NCBI GenBank assembly: GCA_026981985.1
Contig: JALSHZ010000121.1
Span: 17,168-81,167 of the forward strand
Reading direction: 5' to 3'
DNA length: 64,000 nt
From: Gammaproteobacteria bacterium
GTDB lineage: Bacteria > Pseudomonadota > Gammaproteobacteria > UWMA-0217
Part shown: positions 1 to 33,419 of the stretch, in pieces
Layout of the letters: each line of letters starts with the position of its first letter
Position numbering within the stretch: the first letter of the stretch is position 1
Notes under the pieces: generated by a model
Seen by the model: only the letters and a program-made list of their open reading frames with translations
Told to the model about the DNA's origin: nothing
The model's database searches: none
Made by a program: the position numbers and the translations under genes

Positions 1-1804
1 GGCGTCCGCTGGCGGCATGCCGGATCTTGAAATCCGCATCGCGGGCGTCGAAGTCAGCGATGCAAAACTGCATTACACCGACCAGCAGGCGGGTACCTCG
101 ATCCGTATCGACCCCTTCAACCTGCGCACGGGTATCTTGGCATTGAACCAGCCGGTGCCAGTCGAGGCCGATCTCACGCTGTATCAGGATGATCTTACCG
201 TCAAGCTGGATCTTTCCGGCGACCTCACGGCCGACATCGACAATGGACGTTACCGTTTCAGCGACCTCAAGCTGGAACAGAGCGTGAGTGGGCCGGCGAT
301 TCCGGGAGGTGCCATCAGCGCAGTGAGCAGGCTGGAGGTCAAGGCTGACCTCGACAAGCAGACGCTCGACATTGATCCGTTGACTATCGAAGCGCTCGAT
401 CTGACGCTTGATGGCAAGGTCAATGTCCGCAAGTTGCTGGATGCGCCGGTTTACACGGGTGAGTTGCGCAGCAACGAATTCAGTCCACGGGCGTTGATGA
501 CCAAGCTGGGGATCGAACCACCGGCCACCAGTGATGCCAATGTGCTGGCAAAAGCCGCGCTCGGGTTTCGCTTCCAGGGGGACACGCAACAGTTCTCGCT
601 GCGTGAACTGGAGGCCTCCCTCGATGATTCCACGTTGCATGGAGAGTTCAGTGTTGCCGATTTTGCACGGCAAGCCCTACGCTTCAAACTGGTGCTCGAT
701 CAAATCGATGTTGACCGCTATCTGCCCCCGGTAGCCACGGCGACCCAGGCCGATATCACCGCTGGCAAGGCCGAGGCTGGTGCCTCCGATGTGATCGTGT
801 TGCCGCTCGACGTGCTGCGTCAGCTCGATCTTCAGGGCACGGCGACGGTGAAGAAGCTGATCGCCAGCAAGCTGCTGTTCGAGAATGCATCAGTGACGCT
901 GAAGGCGAACGGTGGACGTCTCGCCATCGCGCCGCTGTCGGCCGATCTCTACCAAGGACGGGCTGTCATCGACGCCAGCCTCGACGTGACCGCAGATATG
1001 CCAAAATATGCGGCCAAGGCCGATCTGTCCGGCGTGCGCTCCGAAGGTATTCTGGAAACGCTGTTTGGCGATCGTTACATCTCGGGCGCGGCGAATTTCA
1101 CTGCGAACGTACAGACATCGGGCAATACCGTCACTGGCCTGACCCGGCAGTTGGGTGGGAAGTTTGCCGCCAAGTTCACCGAGGGCACGATCAAGGGATC
1201 GAAGCTGTCGCGCAAGATTCACGAGGCGCAAAATGTCCTGCGCAAATTCGCGGGCAAGCCACCACTGACAGAAGACATTGATGATGACACCAAGTTCTCC
1301 TTGATGCAGCTCAGCGGCAAGATTCGCAATGGCGTCATCAGCAGTGACGACTTGCAGATTCTCGCGCCGATATTCCGCGCCAAGGGCAATGGTAAGGTCG
1401 ATCTGCCAGCGCAGACCATCGATTACACCTTATTGCTCGCTGCCGCTGGTGCCAGTGAAAAAGCGCAGAACTATCTGCCGATACGCATCACCGGCCCGTT
1501 CAGCGATCTGTCAATCAAGGTCAAGGCCGACAGGATGGCAAAAGCGCGCGCCAAGGCCGAACTCGACAAGAAAAAGGCCGAGCTGAAGGCAAAGCTCGAT
1601 GCTGAAAAACAGAAGCTCGAAGCACAGAAAGCAGCGAAAGAGGCGGAATTGAGAGCGCGTGCGGAAGCTGAAAAGGCGAAGTTGAAAGCGAAGGCTGATG
1701 CCGAAGCAGCCCGGGCAAGGGAGAAGTTGAAAGCCAAAGAAGATGCGCTCAAGGAAAAACTGGAAGACCAGCTTCAAGACAAGTTGAAGGGGCTGTTCAA
1801 ATAG
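1..1804 (+). CDS. AsmA-family outer-membrane assembly protein. The 5' end is cut by the window edge and the C-terminus is a K/A/E-rich coiled-coil tail.
   Basis: The ORF is open from the window start, with the first Met at 17, and ends at TAG 1802-1804. The beta-rich AsmA-like sequence and the asmA-mutY synteny support the call. The last 90 residues are a low-complexity KAKAELDKKKAELKAK-type repeat. Confidence 0.75.
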   Translation, partial: ASAGGMPDLEIRIAGVEVSDAKLHYTDQQAGTSIRIDPFNLRTGILALNQPVPVEADLTLYQDDLTVKLDLSGDLTADIDNGRYRFSDLKLEQSVSGPAIPGGAISAVSRLEVKADLDKQTLDIDPLTIEALDLTLDGKVNVRKLLDAPVYTGELRSNEFSPRALMTKLGIEPPATSDANVLAKAALGFRFQGDTQQFSLRELEASLDDSTLHGEFSVADFARQALRFKLVLDQIDVDRYLPPVATATQADITAGKAEAGASDVIVLPLDVLRQLDLQGTATVKKLIASKLLFENASVTLKANGGRLAIAPLSADLYQGRAVIDASLDVTADMPKYAAKADLSGVRSEGILETLFGDRYISGAANFTANVQTSGNTVTGLTRQLGGKFAAKFTEGTIKGSKLSRKIHEAQNVLRKFAGKPPLTEDIDDDTKFSLMQLSGKIRNGVISSDDLQILAPIFRAKGNGKVDLPAQTIDYTLLLAAAGASEKAQNYLPIRITGPFSDLSIKVKADRMAKARAKAELDKKKAELKAKLDAEKQKLEAQKAAKEAELRARAEAEKAKLKAKADAEAARAREKLKAKEDALKEKLEDQLQDKLKGLFK

Positions 1805-2871
1805 GCACCGACAGCTTCAGCAGCCGACTGCTGGCCTGGTTTGATCAGCATGGCCGCAAGCAACTGCCTTGGCAGGACAACCCGACACCCTACCGTGTCT
1901 GGGTGTCGGAGATCATGTTGCAACAAACCCAGGTTGCCACCGTCATTCCCTATTATCAGCGCTTCATGCAGCGCTTTCCCGATGTAGCATCGCTCGCCAA
2001 GGCCACGCAAGACAGCGTATTGGAGCTGTGGACAGGGTTGGGTTACTACGCCCGTGCCCGCAATCTGCACAAGGCGGCTCAGGCAGTGGTCAACGAGTAC
2101 GGCGGCGAGATGCCCTGTGATCAAGCGACGCTGGAGAACCTCCCCGGCATTGGCCGTTCCACCGCCGGCGCGATTCGGGCACTGGCCTGTGGCCAGCATG
2201 CCGTTATTCTCGATGGCAATGTGAAGCGTGTATTGACGCGCTATCATGCGGTGGATGGCTGGCCCGGCCACAGCAAGGTCGCAGCGCGTCTCTGGACGTT
2301 GGCAGCCCGCCACACACCGACCTCCCGCGTGGCGGACTATACCCAGGCGATCATGGATCTGGGTTCGATGGTCTGCACGCGCAGCCGACCCGCCTGTGCA
2401 GATTGCCCGCTGGCGTCGGCCTGTCGCGGCCTGAAGGTTGGCGATCCGCTGCGTTGGCCCAATCGCAAGCCGAAAACGCAGCAACCGCATCGCAGCGTAC
2501 ACCTGCTGCTGCTGCGCAATTCAGCTGATGAATTGTTGTTGCATAAGCGCCCGCCGACCGGTCTCTGGGGCGGGCTTTGGAGCCTGCCGGAAGTACAAAT
2601 GGGCAGTGACATCAGCGCATGGCTGCCCCGGCAACTGGGACTGGATGCGGTTGCCATTCAGTCTTGGCCGGCGTTTGATCATCAGTTTACCCATTTCCGT
2701 CTGACGATTGCGCCGTTGCTTGTGGATGTCGTTGAAAGTGCTGCCTCAGTACAGGAAATGGCGCCCGGTCTGATGCTCTGGTATAACACAGCCCAATCGG
2801 CGCCCGGGGGCTTTCCTGCCCCGGTGGTGAGGCTCTTGCGTCAGTACAGGGCTTACCAATCCGGGCGATAG
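1801..2871 (+). CDS. mutY: A/G-specific adenine DNA glycosylase MutY. The start codon is non-canonical or uncertain; the first canonical start is GTG at 1903.
   Basis: Identity to E. coli MutY over the full length is strong ([20 protein letters not shown], the HhH-GPD fold, the 4Cys cluster CX6CX2CX5C, and the NUDIX-like C-terminus). The homology starts at codon ATA 1801, which aligns with E. coli Met1. Confidence 0.85.
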
Positions 2872-2893: not shown

Positions 2894-3160
2894 ATGACAC
2901 GCATGGTGAACTGTGTACTTCTGAAGAAAGAAGCCGAAGGTCTCGATCGGCCAACCTACCCCGGTGAGCTGGGCAAGCGTATTTTCGACAACGTATCGAA
3001 GGAAGCCTGGCAGCAGTGGGTCAGACATCAAACCATGCTGTTGAACGAATACCGGCTTAGCCCGATCGACCCCAAGGCGAGAAAGTTCATCGAAGAAGAG
3101 ATGGAAAAGTTCTTCTTCGGCGACGGTTCCAAGGTTGATAACTGGACACCGCCTGCTTGA
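2894..3160 (+). CDS. yggX: Fe(2+)-trafficking and oxidative-damage protection protein YggX
   Basis: The product [42 protein letters not shown] matches YggX. It shows the conserved mutY-yggX linkage, with a GGAG ribosome-binding site at 2881. Confidence 0.9.
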
Positions 3161-3231: not shown

Positions 3232-3307
3232 GGCCAGGTAGCTCAGTCGGTAGAGCAGGGGACTGAAAATCCCCGTGTCGGCAGTTCGATTCTGTCCCTG
3301 GCCACCA
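3232..3307 (+). tRNA. tRNA-Phe (anticodon GAA)
   Basis: A 76 nt cloverleaf: acceptor GGCCAGG/CCTGGCC, D arm GCTCAGTCGGTAGAGC, anticodon loop CTGAAAA, T arm GGCAG-TTCGATT-CTGTC, and an encoded CCA end. Confidence 0.95.
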
Positions 3308-12707: not shown

Positions 12708-15054
12708 ATTGTCACACCTGTTGCTTGCCCTGCTGTTGTTCCCCACCGTATTGCTGGCGGTGAGTGAAGACGAGTTGCTTCACGCCGAAGAAGCATTCCG
12801 GTTCAATGCGGAGGAAAAGGCGCCAGGGATTATCGAGCTGAACTGGGAGGTTGCCGATGGTTACTACCTGTATCGCGATAAGTTCAAGTTCAAGGCTGAA
12901 AAAGGGCTACAGCTGTCTGACAAGCCAGTACTGCCAAAAGGCAAGGTGAAGAAAGACCCCAATTTCGGCGATGTCGAAATCCTGCGCGGCAAGATCAGCC
13001 TCGCCGTGCCCTATCGGTTCGAGCCGGGTGCCAAAGGGCCAGCGACGCTGACGGTAGGTTATCAGGGCTGCGCCGATCTGGGGGTGTGCTACCCACCGGA
13101 GAAAAAGACCATCGTCGTCGACAAGGCTGAAGTGTCGGCAGCGGCGGAGCCGGCACAGCGCGGGTCCGTGGCCGAGGCGCTGGCGGCGGCTGCCAAGCCC
13201 AGCCCTTTCGAACGCCTGAGTCGGCTGACCGGGGGCTTGGGTGGTGACGAAGCGCAGGAGCTTTTGCCGAATGACGAGGCCTTCGCGTTCTCTGCCGAGC
13301 TGGCTTCGCCCAATATCCTCATAGCACACTGGAACATCGCGCCGGGATACCACCTCTACAAAGACAAGATCAAGGCAGCGCTGGAATCCGCTACCGGTTT
13401 GAAGCTGGGTCCTGGTGACTTCCCGCAAGGGGAGATGGAGGACGACCTCGAAGGTGGTCTCACCGAAGTCTATCGTGGTCCGCTGACCATCGAGTTTCCG
13501 GTACTGGGCCTGCAGGCGACCCCACCCGAGAAGCTGCGGCTGAAAATCCGCTACCAGGGCTGTGCCGATCAGGGGGTCTGCTATCCGCCGGTGAAAAAAA
13601 CGCTCGACTTCGATGGCGTTCAGCTAGGCTTGCTCAGTGGTGCGATTGCAGGTGCAGACACGGACAGCGTTGCGGCTGCGGCTACACCATCTCCTGAGCC
13701 TGACAGTGTCGCCACGGGCATGGTGTCAGAGCAGGATGCGATTGCCGAGCAACTGGCCTCCGGCAATATGATATTGACGCTGATCGCCTTTTTCGGCTTT
13801 GGCCTGTTGCTCTCACTGACGCCCTGCGTCTTTCCGATGATTCCGATCCTGTCGGGGATAATCGTTGGTCAGGGCGAGACCATTACCACACGCCGCTCGT
13901 TTATGCTGTCGCTGGCCTATGTACTGGCCATGGCGGCGGTCTACGCCGTCGTTGGTGTCATCGCTGCGGTGACCGGCGCAAACTTGCAAACGGCGTTTCA
14001 GAATCCCTGGGTATTGATTACCTTTGCCGGCCTCTTTGTTGCATTGGCCCTGTCGCTTTTCGGCTTTTATGAGCTGCAGATGCCCGCGGCAATTCAGAGT
14101 CGGCTGACCGATGTCAGCAACAAGCAGCGTGGTGGCTCGCTCACCGGTGCTGCCATCATGGGTGTGCTGTCGGCGCTGATCGTCGGCCCCTGTGTTACCG
14201 CGCCATTGATGGGCGCGCTTGTCTACATCAGCCAGACCGGCGATGGTGTGCTCGGTGGCGCGGCGCTGTTCTTCATGGGGCTGGGCATGGGTGTGCCATT
14301 GCTGCTGCTAGGATTGTCGGCAGGCAGTCTGCTGCCCAAAGCCGGCGTCTGGATGGATGCGGTCAAGGCAGTGTTCGGCGTGATGATGCTGGGCGTTGCA
14401 ATCTGGTTTCTGGAGCGAGTGCTGCCGTCGGCAGTAACCATGTTCCTGTGGGCTGCGTTGCTGATTCTCTCTGGCGTCTATATGGGCGCTTTCCATGGCC
14501 ATGGCAAGGTGGGTCACAAACTGCTGCCGCTGTGGAAGGGCATGGGGCTGATGCTGGTGGCATGGGGCATGTTGATTCTGATCGGTATGGCAGCCGGGAA
14601 TAGCAATCCATTGCAACCGCTGCGTGGACTGGCGCTTGGTGGTATGTCGCAGGGTGTAATGGCGGCTGGCGTGGAAACCCGGCGTGGGCTGGATTTCCAG
14701 CCCATCAAGGGGGTCGATGGGCTTGATGCTGCGCTGGCGAAAGCTGCGGCGCAAAACAAGATGGTCATGCTCGATTTTTCTGCTGAGTGGTGCATCACCT
14801 GCAAGGAGCTGGAAGAGTTCACGTTTACCGATCCTGCGGTGCATCAGGCGCTGGATGACGTCTTGTTGTTTCGCGCGGATGTCACCGCCAACGATGCCGA
14901 GGACAAGGCCTTGCTGAAACGGTTTGGCATTATCGGCCCGCCGGCAATCCTGTTCTTTACACCAGACGGCAAGGAACTCAAGGGACATCGCGTCGTGGGC
15001 TTTATGAATGCCGGTGACTTCCGTGCCCACATTCTGAATGCGAAACAGCAATGA
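12694..15054 (+). CDS. dsbD: Thiol:disulfide interchange protein DsbD
   Basis: A signal peptide, a DsbD alpha domain, a transmembrane core with the CVFPMIP motif, and a C-terminal thioredoxin domain containing WCITC. Confidence 0.92.
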   Translation: MLKNRLSHLLLALLLFPTVLLAVSEDELLHAEEAFRFNAEEKAPGIIELNWEVADGYYLYRDKFKFKAEKGLQLSDKPVLPKGKVKKDPNFGDVEILRGKISLAVPYRFEPGAKGPATLTVGYQGCADLGVCYPPEKKTIVVDKAEVSAAAEPAQRGSVAEALAAAAKPSPFERLSRLTGGLGGDEAQELLPNDEAFAFSAELASPNILIAHWNIAPGYHLYKDKIKAALESATGLKLGPGDFPQGEMEDDLEGGLTEVYRGPLTIEFPVLGLQATPPEKLRLKIRYQGCADQGVCYPPVKKTLDFDGVQLGLLSGAIAGADTDSVAAAATPSPEPDSVATGMVSEQDAIAEQLASGNMILTLIAFFGFGLLLSLTPCVFPMIPILSGIIVGQGETITTRRSFMLSLAYVLAMAAVYAVVGVIAAVTGANLQTAFQNPWVLITFAGLFVALALSLFGFYELQMPAAIQSRLTDVSNKQRGGSLTGAAIMGVLSALIVGPCVTAPLMGALVYISQTGDGVLGGAALFFMGLGMGVPLLLLGLSAGSLLPKAGVWMDAVKAVFGVMMLGVAIWFLERVLPSAVTMFLWAALLILSGVYMGAFHGHGKVGHKLLPLWKGMGLMLVAWGMLILIGMAAGNSNPLQPLRGLALGGMSQGVMAAGVETRRGLDFQPIKGVDGLDAALAKAAAQNKMVMLDFSAEWCITCKELEEFTFTDPAVHQALDDVLLFRADVTANDAEDKALLKRFGIIGPPAILFFTPDGKELKGHRVVGFMNAGDFRAHILNAKQQ

Positions 15055-21490: not shown

Positions 21491-23068
21491 ATGTCCGAGC
21501 CTCAAGCCTATCCCGTACGCCGTGCGCTGATCAGCGTTTCCGACAAATCCGGCGTTGCCGATTTTGCCCGTTTTCTGGTTGATCAGGGCGTCGAAATTCT
21601 CTCCACCGGTGGCACTGCGGCGCTGCTGGAAAAAGAAGGCATCGCCGTGACCGAGGTGTCGGATTACACCGGTTTTCCGGAAATGATGTCAGGCAGGATC
21701 AAGACGCTGCATCCGAAGATCCATGGCGGTATTCTGGGGCGCCAAGGGGTCGATGAGTGGGTGATGCAGGAACATGATATTGGACCGATCGATCTGGTTG
21801 TTGTGAACCTCTATCCGTTCGAGGCCACGGTGGCGAACCCTGATTGCACACTGGAGGACGCGATTGAAAATATCGACATCGGCGGTCCGGCGATGCTGCG
21901 TGCGGCCGCGAAGAATCATGCTCGCGTCACTGTCGTCGTCGATCCACAGGACTACGCTGAAATCGAGCAAGTAATGCGCGACAATGGAGGCGTGGTCCCG
22001 GAGGCCACTCGCTACGAGCTGATGGTCAAGGCATTCGAACACACGGCGCGCTACGATGGCATGATTGCCAATCATTTTGGCCGCATTGCTGCTGATGGCT
22101 CGCGCAGCGAATTTTCCCGCACCATCAATTTGCAGTTCAATAAAGCGCAGGACATGCGCTACGGCGAAAATCCACATCAGAAAGCGGCGTTCTATGTCGA
22201 ACCAAACCCTGCCGAAGCTTCTGTCGCCACGGCGAAGCAGCTGCAGGGCAAAGCGCTGTCGTACAACAATATCGGTGACACCGATGCGGCGCTGGAATGC
22301 GTCAAACAATTCGAGCAGCCGGCTTGTGTCATCGTCAAACACGCCAACCCCTGTGGTGTTGCGGTGGATGACAGCATTCTGGCGGCCTATGATCGCGCCT
22401 TTGCTACCGATCCCACCTCGGCCTTCGGCGGCATCATCGCCTTCAATCGGGAACTGGACGAAGCCACTGCAAAAGCCATTGTCGAGCGCCAGTTCGTCGA
22501 AGTCATTATCGCGCCGGCGGTATCGGCGGCTGCGCGGGAAGCCGTTGCTGCAAAGAAAAACGTGCGCCTGCTCGAATGCGGCGAATTCGGCCCGAGCGTA
22601 CCATCACTCGATTACAAACGCGTCGTCGGCGGTTTGCTGGTGCAGGAGCGTGATCTTGGCATGGTCACCGCAGCCGACCTGAAGGTGGTCACCGAATTGG
22701 CGCCCACGGATCAGCAGATGCAGGACCTGTTGTTTGCCTGGAAAGTGGCGAAATACGTCAAGTCGAATGCCATTGTCTATGTGAAAAACCAGATGACGAT
22801 CGGTGTCGGTGCCGGCCAGATGAGTCGGGTCTACTCGGCGAAAATTGCGGGCATCAAGGCACAGGATGAAAATCTCGAGGTGCCTGGATCAGTCATGGCC
22901 TCTGATGCCTTTTTCCCGTTCCGCGATGGCATCGACGCCGCACATGAAGCCGGTATTACCGCAGTGATCCAGCCGGGTGGCTCAATGCGCGACGACGAGG
23001 TGATAGCCGCGGCCAATGAGCATGGCATGGCAATGGTGTTTACGGGGATGCGGCATTTTCGGCACTGA
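21491..23068 (+). CDS. purH: Bifunctional AICAR transformylase/IMP cyclohydrolase
   Basis: Full-length PurH homology. Confidence 0.97.
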
Positions 23069-24901: not shown

Positions 24902-26836
24902 ATGCGGCTGCAATTGTCGGTCAAACAACGAATCTTCGCTTCGATCATACTGTCACTAGGCGTGATGGCAGCGGTGTTGGCGATTGTTTTTCTCGACCGG
25001 CTGGGGAGTGTCACCAGTGGCATGCAAACCGAGATGCTTGAATCCGTGGCCGCTTCGGTCAATTCTGAAATCGACAATCGCACCCGTTTTGCCGCTGCCC
25101 TCGCCATTACGGTCGCCAGTTCGCCAGAATTGAAGCAGGCGTTTGCAGCAGGTGACCGCGCTGCCCTGCAGCGGCTGACCTCGGCGACTTTTGCTGAGCT
25201 CAAGCAGCGTTATGGCGTGCGCCAGTTTCAATTCCATACACCGGATGCACACTCTTTTTTCCGTGTCCACAAGCCGGAAAAGTTTGGCGACGATCTTTCC
25301 AGCTTTCGCCATACCGTGGTCTCGGCCAATGCGAAGCAGCAGGTGGTCGAAGGTATCGAATCCGGGGTTGCGGGGCTCGGTTTGCGTGGTGTAGCGCCAG
25401 TTCATTATGAGGGCCGCCATGCCGGTACGGTGGAGATCGGTCTGGCCCTGAATGAAGCCTTCTTCCAGCGGCTGTCGTCTCGCTACCGTGTCGATCTCGC
25501 CATTCATCTGAAGAAAGGCAGTGGCTTTGTTCCTTCATTGTCGACGATCGAGAAGCAGATTGTCGATGAGACCATATTGCAGCGCGTCATGAATGGCGAA
25601 TCCGTCATTCAGGTCAATGATCAGGAGGGTGCGCCGCTGGGTATCTACACCGCGCCGCTGCGGGACTACTCTGGCAAGGTCATCGGTGCGCTGCAGGTGA
25701 TTCGTGATTTGTCCGCGTTGGCTGCCGTCGAACGCTCGATTGCGCACGACGTGCTCATGGTCACGGTGCTGGTGATACTGATCGGTGCGGCTCTGGCATG
25801 GCTGGTCAGCCGGGGCATCAGCAAGCCGCTCGGCAGCGAGCCGCAAGCACTGGCCGAGATTGCGGCACAGGTCGCTGATGGCAATCTGGAAGTTGAAATC
25901 GAGCGGCAGCATGCAGCTGGCGTCTATGGCGCGTTGGGGGAGATGGTTACCGCGCTGCGTGAGCTGGTCAGCAGGGTCAAACAGACGGCCAACGATGTCG
26001 CTGCCGAGGCGCGGCGCCAGGGGGAGATAGGTTCGCACCTGCATGATCGCATCGAACAGCAGGAAGCGGAACTGATTGGCGTGGCGAAACGTATCAACAA
26101 GCTCGCTGAAACTGTTCAGGCCAGCGCAGCCAATGCTCGGGCGGTCCATGAGCTTGCCGACAGCGTCAACCAGAAGGCACGGCATGGTGATGCGGTTGTC
26201 GCTGAAGTCATGGAGGCGATGACCGAGATCACCGAATCGAGCGGTAAGGCGACCGAGATCATCAGCGTGATCGAGGAGATTGCCTTTCAGACCAATCTGC
26301 TTGCCCTCAATGCCTCTGTCGAGGCGGCGCGCGCAGGTGAATCGGGCAGGGGCTTTGCCGTGGTCGCCAATGAGGTGCGTAACCTTGCTCAGCGTAGCGC
26401 GGCGGCGGCTGGTGAAATCAAAAGCCTGCTCGAAGACAACAATCAGAAAGTCAATAGTGGCGCCGTGCTGATCGACAAGGCTGGCAAGGTGCTCGAGGAT
26501 ATTTTCTCATCGATGGCGGGGTTGGTCGATGTGGTTGACGAAATGGCCAAAGCGTCGCAGCAGCAGTCGGAACGGATCAGTAAGATCGACCGGGCGGTCT
26601 CAGCGTTGCAGTCGTGTACCGAGGAGAACTCCACCCTGGTCGAGCGCTCCTCTGCGTCGGCGCAGGGGCTGGGGCAGCATGCCGAGCACCTGACTGTGTT
26701 GATGGCGCAGTTCAAGGTACGCCAAGAAAACCGCGATGCTCCCGGCTATTCAAGCAATATCCTGCGGCCACCCCTGGCTTCTTCTGCTGCGATATCGGAG
26801 CCGGACCAGTCGGAGCGCTGGCATCGACAGGCTTGA
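24902..26836 (+). CDS. Methyl-accepting chemotaxis protein with a roughly 250 aa periplasmic sensor (Cache-like)
   Basis: TM1, a periplasmic domain, TM2, a HAMP domain and an MCP signalling domain ([14 protein letters not shown]). Confidence 0.9.
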
Positions 26837-29796: not shown

Positions 29797-32700
29797 TTGG
29801 CAGAATGCTCAAATGGCTTGCCAGCCTGTTGCTGCTTCTGCTGCTATTGGTGGTGGGCGCAGTGGCGTATTTCACCGCCACGGAAGACGGCCTGCAGCGC
29901 CTGCTGGCGCTGGGCCAGCGCGTTGCACCCGGAACGCTGAGCTGGCAGCAGGCCGAAGGCCGAATCGCCGGGCCGCTGGATCTGGCGGGTTTCGACTACC
30001 AGCAGGAAAATGGTTTGCAGGTCAATATACGCTCGGTGGCACTGCGCTGGCAGCCACAGGCATTGCTGCAACGCAAACTGCATTTGCAGCGCTTGGCGCT
30101 TTCCGGGTTGACGCTGCATCTGCCCAAGCCGGCAGCGGATGATCTGGAGCAACCGGCAGGCCCAATCGAGTTGCCGGATATCGATCTGCCGATGGATATC
30201 AGCATCGATGAACTGGATCTCGACGATATTCGCATTTATCCCTGGGGCAAGGCGCAGCCGATCGTGATCGACCGCATCAAGCTGGCAGCGGTCGGTGGCG
30301 GCAGCCGTTTGCAAGTGGTCCAGCTCGACCTGCATGCACCAGAGGGGGCGGCCAGCCTCAGCGGTACGGTCGAGCCGCAAGGGGATTATCCGCTCGACCT
30401 CAAGCTCGATTGGCATTTCAATCATCCGCAGTTTGGGGCGTTTGCCGGCAGCGGTGCAGCCACGGGGGATCTGGCGATGCTGCATCTCACGCAGCATGTG
30501 AGTGGGCCCGTTGGCATCGACCTGGTCGCCGATCTGAGCGATGTTCTCAGCAAGCCTGCCTGGGATGCGCGCTTGCAACTGATGGCAGATGATCTGGCAG
30601 CATTTTCACCGGCTCTGAACGGGGCGCCGCTGCAAGCCGAGTTTCGATCTGCCGGCAGTCTGGACAGCTTTTCCGCCGAGGGTGACCTCAAGACAGCGCT
30701 GCCGCAAACTGGGCCGGTGGCGGTGGACTTCTCCGCGCGTGGCAATACCCAGGCCATTGAGCTGGAGCGTCTCAGGCTGCAACCCGAAAACCAGGCCAGT
30801 GAGTTGCTGCTGGCAGGCAAGGTCGAACTCGCACCGCTGCAGTTCGATTTACGGGGAGACTGGCAGCAGCTCGGCTGGCCGTTGCAGGGTGAGCCCATAT
30901 TCTCCAGCCCGAGCGGGAATGTCTCTGTGATCGGGTCGCTCGAAGACTATCGCTTGTCACTCGCCGCCGAGGCGGCCGGGCGGGATATTCCGTCGGGCCG
31001 CTGGACCTTGACCGGCCATGGCTCCGATTCGGCCTTGTCCGACTTCAAGCTCGTGGGCAGTTTGCTTGATGGTGAGATGACGGCGAGCGGGCAGGCCAGC
31101 TGGAAGCCACAGCTGTCATGGCATGTGAGCATTGATGCAAAAGGGATCAACCCCGCAGTGCAGTGGCCGGAATTGCCGGGAAAACTGGATCTGGCCCTGA
31201 CTTCGCAAGGCAAGCTAACGTCGGCTGGCCCCGATCTGACAGCACATCTGGCGCATCTGACCGGGCGTTTTCGTGACCAGCCTGTGCGTGGGCAGGGCGA
31301 GATCGTAGTGGCTGATGGCGAGCTGGATATTCGCCGTCTCGATATCAGCAGTGGAAAAACAGCGCTCACTGCCAATGGCCATCTCGGCAAGCAATGGGAT
31401 CTCGACTGGCGGTTGCTCGCGCCGGATCTAGCCAGCCTTGTGCCATCACTGCGTGGGCGGATCAGTGGCAGCGGCAAGCTCAGCGGCGATGCCAGCAATC
31501 CGGTGGCTGTGATCGATCTCGACGTGCGTGACCTGGTGGCCGGCGATACGCGGATCGGGCGCTTGAATGGCAAGGCGTTGGTGGATATTGGCGGCCAGCG
31601 GCGCTCGCAGATCGACTTTTCCGGAACGAAGCTGAAGCTCGCCGGGGAGGCGTGGTCGAGCCTGAAAATTTCCGGCGGCGGCAAACCCGCGCAGCATAAG
31701 CTCGCGGTGAAGCTGGAAGGTGATCTGGCAAGACTGCGACTTGCGCTGGAGGGTGGGCTCAAAAAAGCGCGGTGGCAAGGGAAGCTGACGCAGCTGGAAG
31801 CGACAAAAACCGAGCTTGGTGACTGGAAGATGGTGCGGGCAGCGCCGCTGACCGCCAGCGCCGAAGCCGCGCAGCTCAGCGGGCTTTGTCTGGCCAGTGC
31901 GCCGACCAGGGTCTGCGTCGATGCCGACTGGAACAAGCAGAAGGGTGTAACTGGCAAGCTGCAACTCACGGAACTTGATGCGCAGCGATTCCGCCGCTTC
32001 CTGCCGCCCGACATCACGCTGCAAACGGCCGTGGATGGCGGTGTCGATTTCGCCCTGGCTGCTGATGGCAAGCCGCGGGTGAAGGCTGATCTGCGTTTGC
32101 GTCCGGGTAAACTCTCCGCGCCGGGCGATGTCGAGCCGCTCGAAGTCCGGCTGGGCGAAAGCCAGATCAAGGCGACCCTTGACGGTGATCGCGCCAATAC
32201 CGAGTTGTCGGTTGACCTCGATGCGCTCGGGCGAATCGAAGCCCGCGTCGCTGTACGCGGTATCGGTGCCAGCCAGCCGCAGTTGACAGGGAAGGTCGAG
32301 GGACGGATTCGTGACCTCGCGATCATCAGTGCTTTCGTGCCGCAGTTACAGGCGGTCGAGGGCCGGCTGGATGCCGATTTGACGCTCAGTGGCCCCGTCA
32401 GTCTGCCAGTGGTGAGCGGTAAGCTGCTGGTCGATGATTTTTCCGCCGAGGTGCCCGAGGTATCGCTGAACATCACGGCGGGGCGCTTTGAACTGGCCAG
32501 TGATGGTAAAGGTCCGCTGCGAATCGCCGGTGGTGCCCGCTCGGGAGAGGGTACGCTGAAGCTGTCGGGCACGCTTGATCCGGCCACCAGGGCATTGCAG
32601 CTGAAGATCAATGGCGATCGTTTCCAGGTGGCGGCAACGCGGAATATTCGCGCCGTGATCAGCCCCGACATGCAGATCGCCATGGACAGCAAGGGCATGC

Positions 32701-33419
32701 GGGTTGAAGGTGAGCTGCTGATTCCCAGTGCCTATATCAAGGCCGGTGGCGGCAGTGGAGGCGAGGGCAAGCTGGTGAAAGTATCCAGTGATGTGGTGAT
32801 CGTGGATGAGAATGGCGAGGCGGCGAAAAAAGCGCCAGCCGGGAATTTTCATCTCAACCTGCGCGTCGTGCTGGGGGATGATATTCGTGTCGAAGCAGCC
32901 GATTTCAGCGGCAAGCTGAAAGGCAATCTGCTGGTGACGCAAAAACCAGGGCTGGTGCCAAGAGCTACCGGCGCCATCGAGGTGGTGAACGGCGACTATA
33001 TCGTTTACGGCCAGCAGTTGAAGATCCAGCGCGGGCGCATTCTGTTTGGCGGTGGCCCGGTTGACAATCCCCGGCTCGATATGGATGTCGCCCGGCGTGT
33101 CGAAGCTTATGATGTACTCGCTGGCGCGAGAATTCGCGGCACGGCGCAGGCACCGATTCTGCAACTTTACTCCGAGCCGTCGATGCCGGATTCGAGCATT
33201 CTTTCCTATATGTTGCTGGGGCAGCCGCCAGGAACCAAAGGCGGCAGTTACACCTTGGGAAAATACCTGACGCCTGATCTCTATGTGGGCTATGGCATCG
33301 GTCTTTTCAATGCCATCAACACCTTCAACATGCGCTATCGCCTGACTGACAAGCTAGCGCTGCAAGCCGCCTCCGGTGCGGCCAGCAGCGCGGATCTCAT
33401 CTACACTTTCGAGCGTTGA
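29793..33419 (+). CDS. tamB: Translocation and assembly module protein TamB
   Basis: 1208 aa with an N-terminal anchor and a C-terminal DUF490 domain. Its start overlaps the tamA stop by 4 bp. Confidence 0.9.
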   Translation: MIGRMLKWLASLLLLLLLLVVGAVAYFTATEDGLQRLLALGQRVAPGTLSWQQAEGRIAGPLDLAGFDYQQENGLQVNIRSVALRWQPQALLQRKLHLQRLALSGLTLHLPKPAADDLEQPAGPIELPDIDLPMDISIDELDLDDIRIYPWGKAQPIVIDRIKLAAVGGGSRLQVVQLDLHAPEGAASLSGTVEPQGDYPLDLKLDWHFNHPQFGAFAGSGAATGDLAMLHLTQHVSGPVGIDLVADLSDVLSKPAWDARLQLMADDLAAFSPALNGAPLQAEFRSAGSLDSFSAEGDLKTALPQTGPVAVDFSARGNTQAIELERLRLQPENQASELLLAGKVELAPLQFDLRGDWQQLGWPLQGEPIFSSPSGNVSVIGSLEDYRLSLAAEAAGRDIPSGRWTLTGHGSDSALSDFKLVGSLLDGEMTASGQASWKPQLSWHVSIDAKGINPAVQWPELPGKLDLALTSQGKLTSAGPDLTAHLAHLTGRFRDQPVRGQGEIVVADGELDIRRLDISSGKTALTANGHLGKQWDLDWRLLAPDLASLVPSLRGRISGSGKLSGDASNPVAVIDLDVRDLVAGDTRIGRLNGKALVDIGGQRRSQIDFSGTKLKLAGEAWSSLKISGGGKPAQHKLAVKLEGDLARLRLALEGGLKKARWQGKLTQLEATKTELGDWKMVRAAPLTASAEAAQLSGLCLASAPTRVCVDADWNKQKGVTGKLQLTELDAQRFRRFLPPDITLQTAVDGGVDFALAADGKPRVKADLRLRPGKLSAPGDVEPLEVRLGESQIKATLDGDRANTELSVDLDALGRIEARVAVRGIGASQPQLTGKVEGRIRDLAIISAFVPQLQAVEGRLDADLTLSGPVSLPVVSGKLLVDDFSAEVPEVSLNITAGRFELASDGKGPLRIAGGARSGEGTLKLSGTLDPATRALQLKINGDRFQVAATRNIRAVISPDMQIAMDSKGMRVEGELLIPSAYIKAGGGSGGEGKLVKVSSDVVIVDENGEAAKKAPAGNFHLNLRVVLGDDIRVEAADFSGKLKGNLLVTQKPGLVPRATGAIEVVNGDYIVYGQQLKIQRGRILFGGGPVDNPRLDMDVARRVEAYDVLAGARIRGTAQAPILQLYSEPSMPDSSILSYMLLGQPPGTKGGSYTLGKYLTPDLYVGYGIGLFNAINTFNMRYRLTDKLALQAASGAASSADLIYTFER

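Follow-up and report, generated by a model that had tools for sequence, protein, structure and literature searches.

At which codon does translation of a mutY gene begin when no ATG, GTG or TTG precedes its conserved N terminus? This question is raised by a 64,000-nucleotide (nt) stretch of the gammaproteobacterial contig JALSHZ010000121.1 (assembly GCA_026981985.1, positions 17,168 to 81,167 of the forward strand), in which mutY, the gene of an A/G-specific adenine DNA glycosylase, follows asmA and the codon aligned with Met1 of Escherichia coli MutY is an ATA. Herein, the whole 64-kb stretch is referred to as the window, all coordinates are window positions, and codons of mutY are numbered from the ATA as codon 1. 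Features lie on the plus strand unless a minus sign is given. The mutY gene of this uncultured lineage is probably intact and functional, with its translation starting at AUA (1801–1803) and a low level of full-length MutY to be expected. The evidence for this reading comes from the alignment of the gene with E. coli MutY, the conservation of the junction with asmA among relatives, the coding constraint on the first codons of mutY, and the silent sites of asmA that form part of its putative start signals.

Identity and Reading Frame of mutY

As proposed, the full-length coding sequence of mutY occupies 1801–2871 and consists of 356 codons followed by the stop codon TAG at 2869–2871. An in-frame TGA at 1696–1698 marks the upstream limit of its open frame. 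The first ATG, GTG or TTG within it is the GTG at 1903–1905 (Val35), which opens an open reading frame (ORF) of 1903–2871. These coordinates had been given in a preliminary description of this DNA and check out. The description had also stated that homology to MutY begins ahead of the GTG and had quoted an N-terminal MutY peptide, which is present in the translation. Read from ATA, the product matches the NCBIfam equivalog PRK10880 with 434 bits (cutoff 427) over profile positions 5–347 of 351, and TIGR01084 with 369.4 bits (cutoff 286.5). Residues 4–225 align one-to-one and without gaps with residues 4–225 of the E. coli MutY catalytic domain (PDB 1kg2/1muy), as the claim of upstream homology implies. 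Hence, the E. coli numbering applies, with ATA as Met1, followed by Phe6, Trp13, GTG 1903 as Val35, GAG 1909 as Glu37, and ATG 1915 as Met39. The triplets GAG ATC ATG at 1909–1917 correspond to Glu37, Ile38, and Met39 in this one-to-one alignment.

Glu37 in VSE(37)IM, Asp138 in ILD(138)GNVKRVL, and the four cluster cysteines are all present in the translation. Glu37 is the catalytic residue of MutY, and the roles of the LDGN residue Asp138 and of the four cysteines of the [4Fe-4S] loop are well established. Judged by its profile matches and residues, the gene is a bona fide mutY.

An ORF that starts at GTG 1903 leaves out codons Phe6 to Trp34 (1816–1902), which encode the conserved N-terminal helix region. 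This GTG has no ribosome-binding site (predicted dG of pairing with the anti-Shine-Dalgarno sequence, +0.4), as had been described. In addition, the Val35 codon is GTG in the window and GTT or GTC in four relatives (loci L082, L091, L092, and L173), meaning that a start at GTG 1903 is not conserved. Translation probably does not begin at this codon.

Conservation of the ATAG Junction

The 3′ part of asmA, a gene for an outer-membrane assembly protein of the AsmA family, lies at 2–1804 and is cut by the window edge (ORF 17–1804; NCBIfam PRK10833 AsmA, E 4.5e-29). An AsmA of 744–750 amino acids (PF05170) occupies the same position in relatives. The C terminus of the protein is the conserved tail KLKGLFK, which is followed by the stop codon TAG at 1802–1804. 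This stop codon and the ATA at 1801–1803 make a 4-nt start/stop overlap, ATAG, which has the layout of the very common ATGA overlap. It is thus confirmed that the asmA stop overlaps an ATA corresponding to Met1 of E. coli MutY.

An ATA overlapping the TAG of asmA is kept in six lineages, the window's own included, with seven ATA-bearing loci. MutY identity to the window at the other loci is 94% in L081, 76% in L082–87, 71% in L091, 68% in L092, 65% in L088/89, and 58% in L174/175. The junction reads TTCAAATAGG in L081, in L082–87 (six separate run assemblies), and in L088/89. It reads TTCAAATAGA in L091, and TTCCGATAG in L092 and in the more distant L174/175 (P0026, 58% identical). The form shared by all is TTC-(AAA or CGA)-TAG with the ATA in the mutY frame. 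No ATG, GTG or TTG stands between the upstream in-frame stop and Phe6 in any of the seven loci, and ATA is the only near-cognate codon common to all of them in the open frame upstream of Phe6.

The contigs of the ATA clade come from independent ENA, JGI, Logan, and NCBI assemblies, with two sources each for L088/89 and L174/175. Since the same ATAG junction is found in separate assemblies, a read error or a recent ATG-to-ATA mutation is, for practical purposes, excluded. A sequencing or assembly error at 1803 that conceals a true ATG could be argued from the rarity of ATA starts and from nothing else, whereas every contig of the clade has the same ATAG and a G at 1803 would convert the asmA stop from TAG to TGG; the probability of such an error is negligible. 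The preliminary description had named two findings that would overturn it, namely an ATG at this codon in close relatives and an upstream start in another frame. When the asmA–mutY junctions of the relatives were compared, none was found to have ATG at this codon, and no upstream start in another frame was found.

Outside the ATA group, a canonical start ahead of Phe6 is missing from just one of the 144 MutY loci with an evaluable N terminus, and the lack of one in the window thus exceeds chance. Among the 120 MutY homologues listed, nearly all begin nine or more residues before Trp13. The one start-less locus among the 144 is L038 (JBCCIP010000009.1, approximately 80 nt upstream of the match start 3001). 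In its open frame, ...TRAEKSGEAILRWFD, a CTG stands at −24 and an ATT at −3, and the locus may represent another non-canonical start or a diverged N terminus. P0079 was considered as a further start-less case and was rejected, as it has a normal upstream ATG that was missed by the gene caller.

The clade sample consists of nine lineages, which are partly related, and all relatives are metagenomic. A metagenome scan with a clade-specific C-terminal alignment yielded none closer than 49% identity among the matches listed, and the best match of a genome scan for relatives was 57% identical. With L174 as the seed, a second protein search turned up no close relatives of this lineage. In the sister group P0006–P0013 (approximately 60% identity), an SRPBCC/polyketide-cyclase-like gene is located between asmA and mutY (L177:1954–2511; the junction of the P0007 lineage was examined). 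In L177, this gene overlaps the mutY start by 11 nt. Hence, the asmA–mutY overlap is specific to some lineages. The P0015 contig carries unrelated DNA upstream of mutY, and the outgroup junctions (P0007 lineage and P0015) are uninformative.

The stop codon of asmA is TAG in nine of nine lineages, including L090 and L173, which have a separate canonical mutY start. An ATAA overlap would serve equally well, yet all nine lineages keep the G at 1804. Within the crude ORF set of the window, TGA is the majority stop (32 of 48), and TAG and TAA occur eight times each. In L091 (2485–2979) and L092 (48–665), the mutY frame is open for 155–196 codons upstream of ATA inside asmA and contains no ATG, GTG or TTG. 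The composition of the AsmA tail, rich in Lys, Ala, and Glu, probably accounts for this.

Coding Constraint on the N-terminal Codons

Between lineages, codons 6–34 show a ratio of nonsynonymous to synonymous differences (pN/pS) of 0.15–0.38. Herein, pS is 0.56–0.94, which is near saturation, and pN is 0.12–0.25. In the junction alignment, Phe6 is encoded by TTC or TTT across lineages and residue 7 by AGC, AGT or GCG (Ser or Ala). Residue 9 is encoded by CGA, CGG, AGG, CGC or AAG, meaning five codons that always specify Arg or Lys. The sole length difference ahead of codon 10 among the lineages is 6 nt. The motif F-[SA]-x-x-[VL]-L-x-W-[FY]-D is conserved across the MutY family. Protein-level selection therefore reaches upstream of codon 10, and the start must precede codons 6–9. 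By the measure of this constraint, the N-terminal codons upstream of GTG 1903 are translated.

The same constraint bears on the second alternative of the preliminary description, an ATG-to-ATA change that has reduced or abolished full-length MutY. On that account, mutY would be a pseudogene or severely down-regulated by the loss of its start, and the organism would belong to a G:C to T:A mutator lineage. The absence of a canonical in-frame start before Val35 would agree with such a loss, as would the weakness of near-cognate starts in E. coli reporters (10.1101/063800). However, all 356 codons form an unbroken frame whose product exceeds the curated equivalog cutoffs and retains Glu37, the LDGN Asp, and the four Cys of the cluster. 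The N terminus is under purifying selection between lineages with near-saturated synonymous sites. Moreover, the start-less state persists to 58% MutY identity, over which a decaying gene would not survive. Given that no relative carries ATG here, that the start-less state is of long standing, and that purifying selection acts on the entire gene, a loss of mutY function is very improbable. The mutator tendency that had been derived from it is not supported by a gene under such selection, and this genome gives no grounds for assuming a mutator phenotype.

Shine-Dalgarno Sequence and Silent Sites of asmA

The Shine-Dalgarno-like sequence GAAGGGG is located at 1786–1792 within Lys-Gly codons of asmA. 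It had been described as good, which holds, and as separated from the ATA by 9 nt, which has to be corrected to 8 nt. Its pairing with the anti-Shine-Dalgarno sequence is predicted at −7.1 kcal/mol, among the top 3.4% of window positions. The relatives carry a Shine-Dalgarno-like AAGGGG, AAAGGG or AAGGGA at a conserved spacing of 7–8 nt. The Gly codon within this sequence is GGG or GGA in nine of nine lineages, as opposed to a GGR share of 18–39% of the Gly codons in the six longer asmA sequences.

The first base of the ATA is the third position of the last asmA sense codon, and it is A in all six ATA lineages. This last codon is AAA in four of them and the rare CGA in the other two (L092 and L174). 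In those asmA genes, AAA makes up 19–52% of the Lys codons and CGA 6–16% of the Arg codons. The product of the codon-usage expectations for A over the six lineages is approximately 7e-5, if the lineages are taken as independent. Two synonymous sites of asmA look constrained, namely, the A that asmA shares with ATA, and the Gly codon within the Shine-Dalgarno sequence, with its purine third base.

L090 (ATG) and L173 (GTG) have a canonical start at codon index 2, downstream of the overlap position. They are also the only lineages in which the last asmA codon is AAG or AAC, giving GTA or CTA as the overlapping triplet instead of ATA. In a neighbour-joining tree, L090 is nested within the ATA clade. 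Because of this nesting, ATA looks ancestral and the ATG of L090 derived. L174 reads ATA GTC, which is one substitution away from ATA GTG and suggests the loss of an adjacent canonical codon in the clade, with ATA as the fallback.

L173 also shows a peculiarity of its own (L173:326–1393; P0014). Its segment F6–W34, approximately 29 codons, is protein-identical to that of L090 and nearly so in DNA (pS 0.16), and the rest of its MutY groups with Competibacteraceae-like MutY in the neighbour-joining tree. The locus could be a mosaic that arose by recombination or by chimeric assembly.

Competing Starts and Points Against an ATA Start

Several observations weigh against translation from ATA. The lineages are few and partly related, with a pS of 0.26 between the window and L081, 0.18 between L091 and L092, and 0.16 between L090 and L173, so that probability products overstate their independence. 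The covariation of ATA with the lack of a canonical start rests on essentially one gain event, and the tree of the ATA clade is a single neighbour-joining tree without support values. The tail KLKGLFK is conserved as protein, and the conservation of the Shine-Dalgarno sequence is thus partly an amino-acid constraint on AsmA. The case for the start site as a whole is one of sequence comparison with metagenomic relatives. Finally, codon 10 is an in-frame GTG in four of the ATA lineages, and codon 11 is a TTG in another. These codons could act as additional or alternative re-initiation sites 20–30 nt after the asmA stop.

The last point can be extended to an explanation in which ATA is incidental and translation starts downstream at codon 10/11, which is CTG CTG in the window (1828–1833) and GTG or TTG in relatives. 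After termination at the UAG of asmA, ribosomes would scan approximately 25 nt and re-initiate without a Shine-Dalgarno sequence, and this may operate as a minor route. The GTG at codon 10 is found in L082, L091, L092, and L174, and the TTG at codon 11 in L088. Gene callers picked this GTG for P0003, P0005, and P0026 (L091:3001, L092:687, and L174:3001), and re-initiation over such distances without a Shine-Dalgarno sequence can work (review PMC12548453). However, the window and L081 have only CTG at these codons, meaning that the start would still be non-canonical, and L088 has GTA at codon 10, so that the position would have to shift between lineages. Val/Leu-Leu is found family-wide at these residues. 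GTG, CTG, and TTG are hence expected from the amino acids, and they also occur in loci with a clear upstream ATG. In P0079, the caller chose this GTG despite an ATG nine codons upstream. As opposed to ATA, none of the competing codons is preceded by a Shine-Dalgarno sequence (dG +0.3 at the CTG CTG of 1828–1833 and at least 0 for either CTG). Codons 6–9, which lie upstream, are constrained as protein, with Phe6 kept and Arg or Lys at residue 9 specified by five codons. A start at codon 10/11 also leaves unaccounted for the kept A of ATA and its loss exactly where a canonical start appears. Such a start, with ATA being incidental, is unlikely.

A programmed −1 frameshift at the end of asmA would dispense with a mutY start altogether by producing an AsmA-MutY fusion. 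The frame of mutY is indeed −1 relative to asmA, and its open stretch ahead of ATA measures 18 to 196 codons, depending on the lineage. However, this upstream length varies freely between lineages. There is no slippery heptamer, and the sequence UUC AAA UAG is replaced by UUC CGA UAG in L092 and L174, leaving no conserved shift site. No stimulatory structure is predicted, and RNA structure around the asmA–mutY junction was not significant (z −0.42). AsmA-family proteins are envelope proteins, and a DNA glycosylase fused to one of them would thus be placed in the wrong compartment. Since L090 and L173 also have a separate canonical start after the asmA stop, a frameshifted fusion is exceedingly improbable.

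Proposed Mechanism of Initiation

Initiation at AUA, the first alternative of the preliminary description, has gained comparative support from the ATA in six lineages, the coding constraint, and the conserved Shine-Dalgarno sequence and A of ATA. The initiator tRNA would read the AUA, and the first residue, aligned with E. coli Met1, would be (f)Met. Ribosomes could arrive there by two routes. In the first, GAAGGGG in the last asmA codons would direct weak de novo initiation. In the second, ribosomes that have just terminated asmA would re-initiate at AUA. Both routes are possible together, and a low level of full-length MutY would be expected from either. We infer both the use of AUA as the start codon and the low expression. 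MutY is a low-abundance protein in E. coli, and a low output would suit such a glycosylase. Neither a sigma-70-like promoter nor a plus-strand terminator-like site was found between asmA and mutY in a weak consensus scan, which is weak evidence. An inhibitory RNA structure is not predicted at the junction either.

In a stronger form of the second route, AUAG would be a dedicated coupling device, with MutY being made mainly by asmA-terminating ribosomes that re-initiate one base back. This is rather unlikely. If it were true, MutY would be made in a small, fixed proportion to AsmA translation, and its output would vary with the level of IF3 or the state of the ribosome, for example, in the cold, in starvation or in stationary phase. 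Repair capacity, and hence the G:C to T:A mutation rate, would then be tuned at translation. For a TAG or TAA stop, only one "−4" overlap is possible, and the junction would then be a case of it found in nature.

Gene Calls and Neighboring Genes

The absence of a canonical start has consequences for annotation. The public MutY gene calls P0001, P0004, and P0011 (L081:1540, L082:3001, and L088:2905) start at Met39, comprise 318–327 amino acids, and begin with MLQQTQ. These Met39-started calls (94%, 76%, and 65% identity, respectively) omit the catalytic Glu37. The callers probably favour ATG 1915 because the conserved SEIM codons contain GGAG 2–3 nt upstream (dG −6.6). As a result of such truncated calls, a scoring of repair capacity in these genomes could wrongly mark MutY as defective.

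Downstream of mutY, in the same operon-like array, lies a yggX-like gene for oxidative damage protection/Fe(2+) trafficking (2894–3160; NCBIfam PRK05408, E 2.6e-40), which has a normal ATG and a Shine-Dalgarno sequence. The gene order moaC-asmA-mutY-yggX is kept in relatives. A tRNA-Phe (GAA) at 3232–3307 (+) directly follows yggX and is the sole Rfam match in the 64-kb window.

Elsewhere in the window, long ORFs with start-less open leaders of 65–107 codons are located at 31446–33353 (−), 25535–26506 (−), 21689–22603 (−), and 12907–13623 (−). These are the four longest start-less leaders among the flagged ORFs of the window, and they were judged by composition. As candidates for further non-canonical starts they were rejected, since their Arg/Leu/Asp/His-rich translations look like antisense shadows.

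Comparison With Known Systems

The closest reference for the protein is E. coli MutY, with which the window gene shares Glu37, the LDGN Asp, the cluster Cys-x6-Cys-x2-Cys-x5-Cys, the C-terminal domain, and a yggX immediately downstream. It differs in its start codon, which is ATG in E. coli and ATA in the window.

A literature search for a non-canonical start of mutY or its coupling to asmA found nothing relevant. Conserved near-cognate AUN starts are known from other genes, namely infC and pcnB of E. coli (AUU) and infC, ccpN, and citZ of Staphylococcus aureus (AUA). Like the putative mutY start, they follow a good Shine-Dalgarno sequence and are kept among orthologs, and the effect expected for this class is a lower, IF3-sensitive initiation (10.1101/063800; PMC13009471; PMC5499595). 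In E. coli, infC and pcnB are the only confirmed natural near-cognate cases, and AUA initiates at 0.1–3% of AUG in reporters (bioRxiv 10.1101/063800). In S. aureus, the AUA starts of ccpN and citZ were mapped by Ribo-RET and reach approximately 10–30% of AUG. The infC gene of this species likewise starts at AUA, and an extended Shine-Dalgarno sequence accompanies the sites described (PMC13009471). AUA mRNAs can be good competitors in vitro (PMC5499595). At the mutY locus, the features of this class are found together: there is no canonical start, conservation exceeds neutral drift, and a Shine-Dalgarno sequence lies at functional spacing. On these grounds, the putative mutY start can be placed among the conserved near-cognate start codons already known. 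What differs from the infC class is that mutY is a DNA glycosylase gene, that the AUA overlaps an upstream stop codon, that no infC-like autoregulation is implied, and that the start is predicted from sequence comparison. New to the class are the gene itself, how old the feature is, and its position within a 4-nt overlap that includes a TAG stop. If the assignment is true, an evolutionarily old AUA start in a DNA-repair gene would join the few known non-canonical bacterial starts.

The second reference is formed by the 4-nt NTGA ("−4") and the 1-nt TAATG/TGATG overlaps, which couple the translation of neighboring genes. A review describes only NTGA, TGATG, and TAATG overlaps (PMC12548453), and ATAG and ATAA overlaps are not mentioned in a paper on translational coupling (PMC6728339). 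Canonical forms of the asmA–mutY junction occur elsewhere in the Gammaproteobacteria, with AAATGA in L003, TAATG in Marinobacter (L051), and TAGTG in Porticoccus (L025). In NTGA overlaps as in the window, the start consists of bases 1–3 and the upstream stop of bases 2–4, the Shine-Dalgarno sequence lies inside the upstream gene, and the genes are co-directional. ATAG, however, has a TAG stop and contains neither an NTG start nor a TGA stop; it shares the geometry of NTGA overlaps and is not a member of their sequence class. With a TAG (or TAA) stop, the overlapping start can only be NTA, and ATA is thus the only usable near-cognate codon. The ATAG overlap hence offers a context for a clean test of near-cognate tolerance in termination-reinitiation, combining the geometry of NTGA junctions with an AUA of the kind known from infC, ccpN, and citZ.

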